64,000 nt of DNA from an uncultured Clostridia bacterium (lineage in GTDB: Bacteria; Bacillota; Clostridia; TANB77; CAG-508), in the NCBI GenBank assembly GCA_947588945.1, contig CANPZY010000004.1:2174-66173 (forward strand). Reading direction: 5' to 3'. The notes beneath the pieces were generated by a model, which was not told where the DNA came from, ran no database searches, and was given only the letters and a program-made list of their open reading frames with translations. The translations under genes were made by a program, and so were the position numbers. Positions within the stretch are counted from its first letter, which is position 1; each line of letters starts with the position of its first letter. Shown here one piece after another: positions 20,933 through 21,045 of the stretch.

Positions 20933-21045
20933 AAAATATAATAGTTTTTATAGTTTGTTGTCGCAGATGAAACTTAAAAGTTTCATCGCTCCATTCGCAG
21001 GCTTCGCCTTTGGTCGCTACGCACTATTGCAAACTATTATATTTT
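20933..21045 (-). repeat. GC-rich structured intergenic element, copy A (113 nt)
   Basis: Conserved core GCGTAGCGACCAAAGGCGAAGCCTGCGAATGGAGC...TGCGACAACAA, closed by ATAGT/ACTAT. The 15-bp perfect AT arms are plus 20933..20947 and 21031..21045. It starts 21 nt downstream of the obg stop, on the same strand. Confidence 0.85.

Follow-up and report, generated by a model that had tools for sequence, protein, structure and literature searches.

SPRITE, Correia and REP/BIME repeats are the closest known kinds to the element described here, a 113-nt palindrome (copy A) located immediately downstream of obg in a 64,000-nt stretch of the genome of an uncultured Clostridia bacterium (GenBank assembly GCA_947588945.1, contig CANPZY010000004.1, positions 2,174 to 66,173; hereafter the window). 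Copy A belongs to a previously unnamed family of intergenic palindromes that resemble terminators. Within Firmicutes the closest precedent is SPRITE, a terminator-like repeat of pneumococcus (PMC3049150). Like the copy A family, SPRITEs are shorter than 200 bp, occur in tens of copies in a Firmicute, and form a long stem with a U-rich tract behind it and runs of A and T at the ends; they lie near the 3' ends of coding sequences, are enriched between convergent genes, have no known transposase or target-site duplication (TSD), and have been proposed to be co-opted terminators (PMC3049150). The copy A family exhibits the same type of placement, with 40 of 42 copies at gene 3' ends and 11 convergent versus 2 divergent contexts. 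Compared by description, not by sequence, SPRITE differs in being AT-rich throughout and in forming a simple 18-bp duplex, whereas the present element has a GC-rich three-way junction, invariant joining strands, an inverting core and an unrelated host.

Correia elements of Neisseria (CREE/nemis) resemble our element in size (~100-155 bp), in having inverted terminal repeats and in forming hairpins in transcripts, and their inversion has been reported (Elbeyioglu et al. 2017, as cited in PMC10969869). Their own features are conserved 26-bp terminal inverted repeats (TIRs), a TA duplication, an IHF site, strong outward promoters and cleavage by RNase III. In our element, in contrast, the arms vary and conservation is internal, there is no established TSD, and the copies lie behind genes and not in front of them. 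REP/BIME/REPIN elements are also gene-end palindromes that persist vertically, with two inverted halves and a GTAG-like tag, and roles in termination and mRNA stabilisation have been proposed for them (PMC3116915, PMC3337134, PMC3733652). The first joining strand of our element (J1, GCG-YAG-CG) contains GTAG or GCAG. However, its unit is a 130-nt composite of arms and an asymmetric three-way junction rather than two inverted REPs of 20-40 bp, its host is a Firmicute, and no RAYT or Y1 match was obtained in the high-copy genomes.

BOX elements of Streptococcus pneumoniae (boxA-boxB(n)-boxC) are similarly modular, with pairing ends, an inner module that differs in number and sequence while the fold is preserved, and exchange of modules, but possess recognisable TIRs and TSDs and a candidate parent insertion sequence (IS); neither a conserved three-way junction nor core flipping is reported for them. 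A different kind of precedent is offered by quasipalindrome correction in E. coli and by hairpin inversions in chloroplasts, where an exact reverse complement is produced between short inverted repeats without any recombinase. Template switching is well known both for quasipalindromes and for the hairpin-loop inversions of plastid DNA. Our element resembles these in its recurrent inversions on nested scales (83-nt core, 4-nt loop) and in the one-step compensation of its arms, but it is a conserved multi-copy unit with an apparently selected junction and not an arbitrary hairpin. The special property of the family is the recurrent inversion of a core between arms together with a three-way junction under purifying selection.

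Inversion of the core between sister species

The family unit is ~130 nt long. Two arms of ~19-28 bp, with an outer A tract on the 5' side and an outer T tract on the 3' side, enclose an internal loop rich in purines, an inner helix of 5 bp and a GC-rich three-way junction, where the strands J1, J2 and J3 join a mini-hairpin (P2) and a variable hairpin (P3) to the inner helix. The arms are near-perfect within a copy and different between copies, which fall into several subfamilies. We compared the genome carrying the window (G000, a 1.40-Mb assembly, 90.6% complete) with that of a sister species (G045, Obg 97% identical). Among 29 further species of the genus in which the region 3' of obg was inspected, the element was found after obg only in the closest one, G045. 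There the flanks of copy A are colinear with and nearly identical to those of G000, and the arms keep their place, while the 83-nt core between them (21030-20948) is exactly reverse-complemented, with no substitution. In the arms the two species differ at a single pair, where T>C on one side is compensated by A>G on the other. The flipped core implies that the element keeps no fixed strand in the obg transcript.

Thirty G045 copies were fetched with their flanks, 26 of which have an ortholog in G000. Orientation is flipped in 13 of these 26 pairs and the same in the other 13. On a smaller scale, two orthologous pairs differ in the P3 loop, whose 4 nt are by themselves turned round with respect to the core (CTTG versus CAAG); both loop states are present among paralogs. 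Compensated double changes between orthologs amount to 5 in 540 arm positions, for which a rough chance estimate is less than one. In about ten orthologous pairs P2 or P3 has been replaced by the version of another copy, with flanks and junction unchanged; these wholesale swaps indicate gene conversion among dispersed copies. The swapped loci (L-numbers denote loci fetched from other genomes, C-numbers the contigs of G000) are L044, L051 (copy B), L061, L059, L054-L056 and L048. The G045 ortholog of copy B has the same orientation as in G000, with its P3 exchanged for a different hairpin.

Taken together, the P3 loop flips, the Watson-Crick stems and the compensated arm changes suggest that the DNA hairpin is itself the agent. 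A hairpin of 8-10 bp would not serve any site-specific recombinase as a substrate; template switching does act on it. Hairpin-driven template switching during replication, combined with gene conversion, fits the changes seen in the element, and a dedicated recombinase is not needed. G000 encodes seven serine and five tyrosine recombinases, which may take part in the core inversion although they are unnecessary for it.

Four contigs from the G000 species (one from ENA and three from Logan), found by exact look-up of the Obg protein together with the downstream acyltransferase protein, all show the G000 orientation at copy A. Exact look-ups with asnS, Fe-ADH and the gene preceding copy C returned no further contigs, and two metagenome pattern scans for the copy A locus gave none in the first and two unrelated chance matches in the second. 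Because the four contigs agree, the flipped orientations are unlikely to be assembly artefacts; moreover, the arms (19-28 bp) are far shorter than reads. The Logan contigs (L080-L082, runs ERR10663691-3) break inside copy A, at J1 or J3, presumably owing to k-mers common to other copies or to the palindrome. Contig ends were also inspected as a sign of heterogeneity, and just 2 of 84 touch a related hairpin. The end of C12 and the start of C17 have ~60 bp in common, inverted with respect to each other. A small hairpin GCCTTCGCTACGCTTAGTCTGCGAAAGGC within this stretch looks like a miniature J1 region, and the assembly may have broken here at a segment that is inverted or can invert.

Copy A at the obg locus

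The features of the locus are listed in Table 1. A covariance model of the element (R1) was built from the copies found by a motif search of the whole G000 assembly; its match to copy A covers 20922-21055, and arm pairing reaches ~20929-21049. An earlier note on this DNA, made by inspection, had quoted a sequence for copy A that is the exact minus strand of 21045..20933. The note had also correctly placed its start at nucleotide 21 past the obg stop, with 20 nt lying between the TAA and copy A. The note's comparison with the two other full copies of the window (B and C) likewise stands in every respect: P2 is longer in copy A (GGC-GAA-GCC versus GCGAAGC), the inner helix has changed on both strands (ATAGT/ACTAT versus GTATC/GATAC and GTAGC/GCTAC), and P3 is wholly different.

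Table 1. Features of the copy A locus and of the other family members in the window
Feature	Position	Strand	Remarks
obg (GTPase Obg/CgtA)	21066..22346	minus	Pfam GTP1_OBG 2.7e-65, MMR_HSR1 1.1e-24, DUF1967 8.3e-20
obg stop codon TAA	21068-21066	minus	
Copy A, 113 nt	20933..21045	minus	R1 covariance-model score 113.6 bits, E = 2e-21
5' outer arm ATTTAAAATATAATAGTTT	21031..21049 (21045-21031 within the 113 nt)	minus	A-rich outer end
Invertible core, 83 nt	20948..21030	minus	internal loop, 5-bp inner helix and three-way junction
GCA internal loop	21030-21028	minus	
Inner helix, 5' strand ATAGT	21027-21023	minus	
Junction strand J1 GCGTAGCGACCAA	21010..21022	minus	fourth-position Y pairs with R of J3
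Mini-hairpin P2, A-GGC-GAA-GCC-T	20999..21009	minus	GC-GAA-GC in most copies
Junction strand J2 GCGAATGGAGC	20988..20998	minus	nearly invariant in family
Variable hairpin P3 GATGAAACTTTTAAGTTTCATC	20966..20987	minus	9-bp perfect stem, 4-nt loop
Junction strand J3 GCGACAACAA	20955..20964, preceded by T at 20965	minus	nearly invariant in family
Inner helix, 3' strand ACTAT	20954-20950	minus	
AA spacer	20949-20948	minus	
3' outer arm AAACTATTATATTTTAAAT	20929..20947 (20947-20933 within the 113 nt)	minus	T-rich outer end
Promoter-like site TTGATT-17-TAAAAT	20855..20883	minus	promoter scan; precedes downstream acyltransferase/GT8 operon
Copy B	47070..47200 (47075-47194 in the earlier note)	plus	141.6 bits; between convergent asnS and Fe-ADH
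Copy C	63578..63706 (~63590-63700 as compared with copy A)	plus	112.5 bits
Remnant 3' half (…TTTTCTGCGACAGCAAGATACGG and arm)	47010..47062	plus	starts 12 nt past asnS stop

The arms of copy A are AT-rich inverted repeats with 15-19 bp paired, and the core has a G+C content of 44.6% versus 26.3% for the window. The 5' arm pairs with 20929-20947 in all RNA and DNA folds. Stability compared with shuffled controls, whose lack the note had named as a refutation, is high for both strands: the obg-sense strand folds as RNA at -39.9 kcal/mol (z = -7.7) and the opposite strand at -37.4 kcal/mol (z = -6.5), and the DNA folds give z = -7.1 and -6.2 for the two strands. The core pattern of the element is expected to match shuffled sequence zero times.

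Covariation of the helices

Forty copies from G000 and other genomes were aligned (alignment A2). Modelled base pairs are formed in 92.5% of the cells, whereas shuffling lowers this to 69% and sliding the partners to 53% or less, and changes on both sides are found in 35 of 40 pairs. P2, which occurs in length variants among the copies, has both of its modelled pairs changed on both sides and 98.8% of its cells paired. The pair between the Y of J1 and the R of J3 is U-A in 25 sequences, C-G in 12 and U.G in 2, and the adjacent G-C pair is invariant. The joining strands, on the other hand, are fixed: J1 is GCGYAGCG-NNN-AA, J2 is GCGAATGGAGC and J3 is GCGACARCAA, and in 41 copies the J2 columns are mostly invariant or near-invariant. 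The arms, the inner helix, P2 and P3 are free to vary, P3 reaching ~40-60 nt in other species.

Such a pattern would usually be read as the mark of a structured RNA, but DNA palindrome dynamics explain the covarying helices, and the covariation is therefore no evidence for RNA. The two-strand helix change in copy A is accordingly real, yet not evidence for RNA. Selected RNA helices usually allow many wobble pairs. The P3 stems contain one G.T in 334 pairs, and the arms and inner helix six G.T/T.G in 1309 positions. The asymmetry between G.U and A.C, used as a test for the RNA strand, gave no signal because the stems are Watson-Crick. The element is a clean natural trap for structured-RNA searches, in that covariation in 35 of 40 pairs is producible by DNA hairpin dynamics, and the exact core inversion at an orthologous site shows this trap directly.

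Constraint on the junction

Divergence between G000 and G045 was counted after the orientation of the core had been normalised. The 100-nt flanks differ at 8.3% of positions (397/4800), the arms at 5.3-5.7% (79/1440), P2 at 8.6% (18/210), P3 at 6.8% (36/532) and J1 at 7.4% (23/312). The corresponding values are 1.1% for J2 (3/264) and 0.4% for J3 (1/240). Taken together, J2 and J3 exhibit 4 differences in 504 nt (~0.8%), and change at roughly a tenth of the rate of arms and flanks (Fisher tests: p = 5e-7 with the arms as reference, p = 4e-12 when the flanks are added to them). These figures are pooled over same-orientation and flipped pairs. Conversion between copies would, by a rough estimate, be insufficient on its own to produce the J2/J3 conservation, since the swaps touched ~40% of the pairs. 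These data suggest that resident copies are under purifying selection at the junction. The ~ten-fold conservation of the junction at orthologous sites sets the element apart from ordinary transposable elements of the miniature inverted-repeat kind (MITEs) and REPs.

The J1, J2 and J3 motifs are also kept in other genera despite linear spacing that changes with helix length. Motifs kept while their linear distances vary argue for recognition of a folded single strand, RNA or DNA, rather than of a linear duplex, and this folded strand is probably recognised by a putative factor. Candidate ligands of the junction could be a termination or 3'-end-processing factor, or a hairpin-binding chromosomal protein. 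A more speculative proposal, which we put forward only tentatively and think rather improbable, is that the three-way junction, with two opposed G.A pairs beside its branch point, would be a new protein-binding module in a folded single strand, which gut Clostridia of one clade with very AT-rich genomes would have spread over ~45 gene ends in self-inverting palindromes and would maintain by purifying selection.

Genomic placement and the proposed terminator function

The gene contexts of 42 G000 copies were taken from a simple open reading frame call. Forty copies adjoin the 3' end of a gene, usually 0-60 nt from the stop codon. Of the copies in tandem contexts 23 are antisense and 6 sense, and the others lie between convergent (11) or divergent (2) genes, so that the earlier description of the element as always co-oriented with a gene is wrong for the family. 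The implied strand-specific RNA is likewise left unsupported by these counts, by the inverted core in G045 and by the flipped half of the orthologs. In G045 the tandem contexts are 13 antisense versus 7 sense. Copy A itself has the rarer orientation in G000 and the commoner one in G045. Ordinary hairpins occupy two G000 slots (C2, C3) that are syntenic with element sites elsewhere. The one in the C3 slot is long, AT-rich and perfect, with A and T tracts on its sides, an outer design like that of the element arms.

Since the outer 3' arm is T-rich and the outer 5' arm is A-rich, a U tract would be obtained in either reading direction. Placement, convergent excess and folding of both strands are what would be expected of a bidirectional hairpin terminator or 3'-end stabiliser. 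We lean, by a small degree, towards reading copy A as a hairpin terminator repeat that has been domesticated and tolerates either orientation, and whose junction would be read by a putative factor. Transcribed from either side, the whole element would fold into a long hairpin ending in a U tract, a design equal to that of the ordinary long AT-rich terminators of G000. Copy A would then act as terminator and 3'-end hairpin of obg in either orientation. A consensus terminator scan, which accepts loops of up to 8 nt, found no other terminator-like site from obg to the next gene, in agreement with the earlier statement that copy A is the one obvious terminator-like structure there; it is the sole hairpin in the terminator slot. 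The promoter-like site at 20855-20883, if it is a real promoter, would imply that obg transcription should stop at copy A. In many species of the genus a promoter-like block TTGATTTTTT..GTTGTATTAAAAT stands before the next gene 3' of obg, including cases where this is a different gene (L011-L015, L018, L025).

Several observations weigh against the terminator reading. The same scan leaves copy A and the best-scoring copy uncalled, because its loop limit is 8 nt; copy A does not follow the classical intrinsic terminator pattern, its "loop" being an 83-nt folded core and the base of its stem consisting only of A-T (A-U) pairs, which is weak for such a terminator. A plain terminator needs no conserved asymmetric junction, which leaves the J2/J3 constraint without a mechanism. 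The orientation bias in G000 (23 versus 6, p = 0.002) is unexpected if orientation is fully neutral; GC skew and replication strand (27 versus 14) are confounding factors for this bias, which is weaker in G045. All four readable contigs of the species show a single orientation, and thus flipping within a species was not seen. No enzyme mobilising the element was identified. Around the site filled in G045 (L058) and empty in G000 (C8), a ~14-nt imperfect direct repeat brackets a 192-bp segment, which corresponds to an insertion or a repeat-mediated deletion; a second "empty" site holds a remnant of the element. Lastly, termination at copy A is itself inferred from sequence.

Alternative explanations

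The element could instead be a selfish one of MITE, REPIN or PATE type, with its junction serving as the target of a trans-acting transposase on folded single-stranded DNA (ssDNA), its gene-end sites being tolerated insertions and the host deriving no function from it. We regard this as unlikely. The family is indeed dispersed and multi-copy with inverted arms, tandem and truncated copies occur, and in more distant species of the genus six of seven copies lie at non-orthologous loci, which indicates that the family moves or turns over on that time scale. On the shorter time scale mobility is low, with 26 of the 30 examined G045 copies at the same sites as in G000. The favoured C-GAA-G loop of P2 matches d(GCGAAGC), an unusually stable DNA mini-hairpin. 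The fixed junction and free helices recall hairpin recognition by HUH/Y1 enzymes, and J1 carries a GTAG-like tag as in REPs (PMC3733652). However, the Y1 transposase domain PF01797 has no match in G000, G045 or G002 (all incomplete metagenome-assembled genomes), and two matches in the element-free G012. Across the genus PF01797 is found in 20 of 41 genomes without relation to the presence of the element, and a link to RAYT/Y1 was rejected since Y1 genes do not track it. A search for TnpB was negative as well. No copy has its halves placed around a transposase, the half copies adjoining instead relA-like, SNF2-like and other housekeeping genes. The conserved TIRs matching a parent IS that are expected of a MITE are not seen either: it is the arms, in the place of TIRs, that vary and differ between copies. 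In addition, transposability alone does not predict the purifying selection suggested for J2 and J3 in resident orthologs.

A strand-specific structured RNA (a 3'-UTR, that is untranslated region, element or a small RNA), with a junction working as RNA and inversions being occasional inactivating or switching events, is less plausible again, and we would be surprised to see it hold. Conserved joining strands with helices of variable length are a classic sign of a functional folded nucleic acid, and the orientation bias of G000 suggests a preferred strand. A further lead is the possible pairing of J2 UGGAGC with J3 GCGACA, where two opposed G.A pairs beside the branch point resemble a protein-binding RNA motif of the k-turn or k-junction type; one divergent member has C-G pairs instead at the two G.A positions. 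Against this stand the half of the orthologs flipped relative to their flanking genes, the conservation of J2 and J3 across a set of pairs of which half are flipped, and the virtual absence of G.U pairs. Moreover, the preferred orientation is antisense to the strand chosen in the earlier note, copy A being in the minority. No Rfam family was matched, even at E <= 10.

A recombinase-driven inverton, in which J3 and the 3' arm would together make up an outward promoter (GCGACA-N16-18-TATAAT) whose flipping switches the neighbouring gene on or off, appears very improbable to us. The segment does lie between inverted repeats and is found in both orientations (at copy A and 12 further loci), the recombinases mentioned above are encoded in G000, and the match to GCGACA-16-TATAAT is 10/12 in the best copy and 9/12 in copy A. 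The promoter match is nevertheless weak, and its -35 hexamer lacks TTG; the copies hug stop codons and not start codons, with 11 convergent versus 2 divergent contexts among the 42; the 4-nt P3 loop flips too, which is beyond any recombinase; and all readable assemblies of the species have one orientation at copy A.

An ssDNA signal similar to ssoA, the single-strand origin of rolling-circle plasmids, in which RNA polymerase or primase would read a palindrome folded on the exposed template of the lagging strand, deserves hardly any credence: the preference for a C-GAA-G loop, suggestive of a DNA mini-hairpin, and the mild bias in strand with respect to GC skew (27 versus 14) are offset by the lack of an RSB-like box in the element and of similarity to plasmid or phage records, by the one-orientation action of single-strand origins, whereas the element copies flip, and by the absence of any known need for such signals in a theta-replicating chromosome. 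In size and palindromic design the element is near to the ~160-nt ssoA (PMC5703833), which is marked by an RSB box and a CS-6 loop box (PMC4598088, PMC5703833). TAGCGA, found in J1 and also ahead of J3 in roughly every second copy, resembles the CS-6 box TAGCGT (PMC4598088), but a 5-of-6 hexamer match carries little information.

Distribution of the family and other repeats

The motif search of G000 yielded 41 full copies plus halves. The R1 model gave 45 matches in G000, 41 in G045 and 31 in G002, and matches in 8 of the 12 other species of the genus first sampled as well as in two further genera of the same family. It matched none of 19 genomes from four other families of the order. The three genera with matches belong to one family of uncultured gut Clostridia that have small genomes with 26% GC. 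At gathering thresholds Rfam 15 has no match in the whole window, and at E <= 10 the region 20850-21130 returns chance-level snoRNA and miRNA hits only (12-20 bits, versus gathering thresholds of 39-211). BLAST searches in distant mode against plasmid (72,556) and phage (50,697) records gave only AT-rich chance matches, and hammerhead core motifs, sought by eye on both strands of the element, are absent. This unnamed repeat family of an uncultured gut lineage joins the few terminator-like repeats known from Firmicutes. For annotation, the 45 sites are better marked as repeat or terminator-like features than as strand-specific RNA genes.

Truncated copies are found at C7:8969, C18:8881, C20:18559, C11:21425-21443 and at 47010-47062 of the window, right after the stop codons of ordinary genes. 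The genes preceding them include asnS and those for a 738-aa protein, a 1201-aa protein with an acidic tail and a 1110-aa SNF2-type helicase. Each truncated copy retains only its gene-distal half, three of them breaking exactly past GCGAATGGAGC, and a full copy in the same orientation follows four of the five, the exception being the C11 remnant. They may represent deletions halted by selection at the gene end. We considered and rejected the possibility that the half copies are the ends of a longer "cargo" element, their neighbours being the 3' ends of ordinary genes.

Other repeats occupy the region after obg elsewhere in the genus. At L026 (G043) and L024 (G026) a different and larger GC-rich palindrome is present, with arms AAAATCACAATATA... 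and a ~100-nt core in opposite orientations in the two species. This core holds GAGCGAATAGCGACC, which recalls J2 and J1; the palindrome may represent another family that flips, or else a distant relative. Repeat units of the TTTTCAGTTGGGGACGGTCCTAAAACGAAAA type, both direct and inverted, follow obg in L023, L024, L026 and L032 and constitute another small repeat family. At L019 (G011), the final ~33 nt of obg, including a stop codon, are tandem-duplicated directly after the gene.

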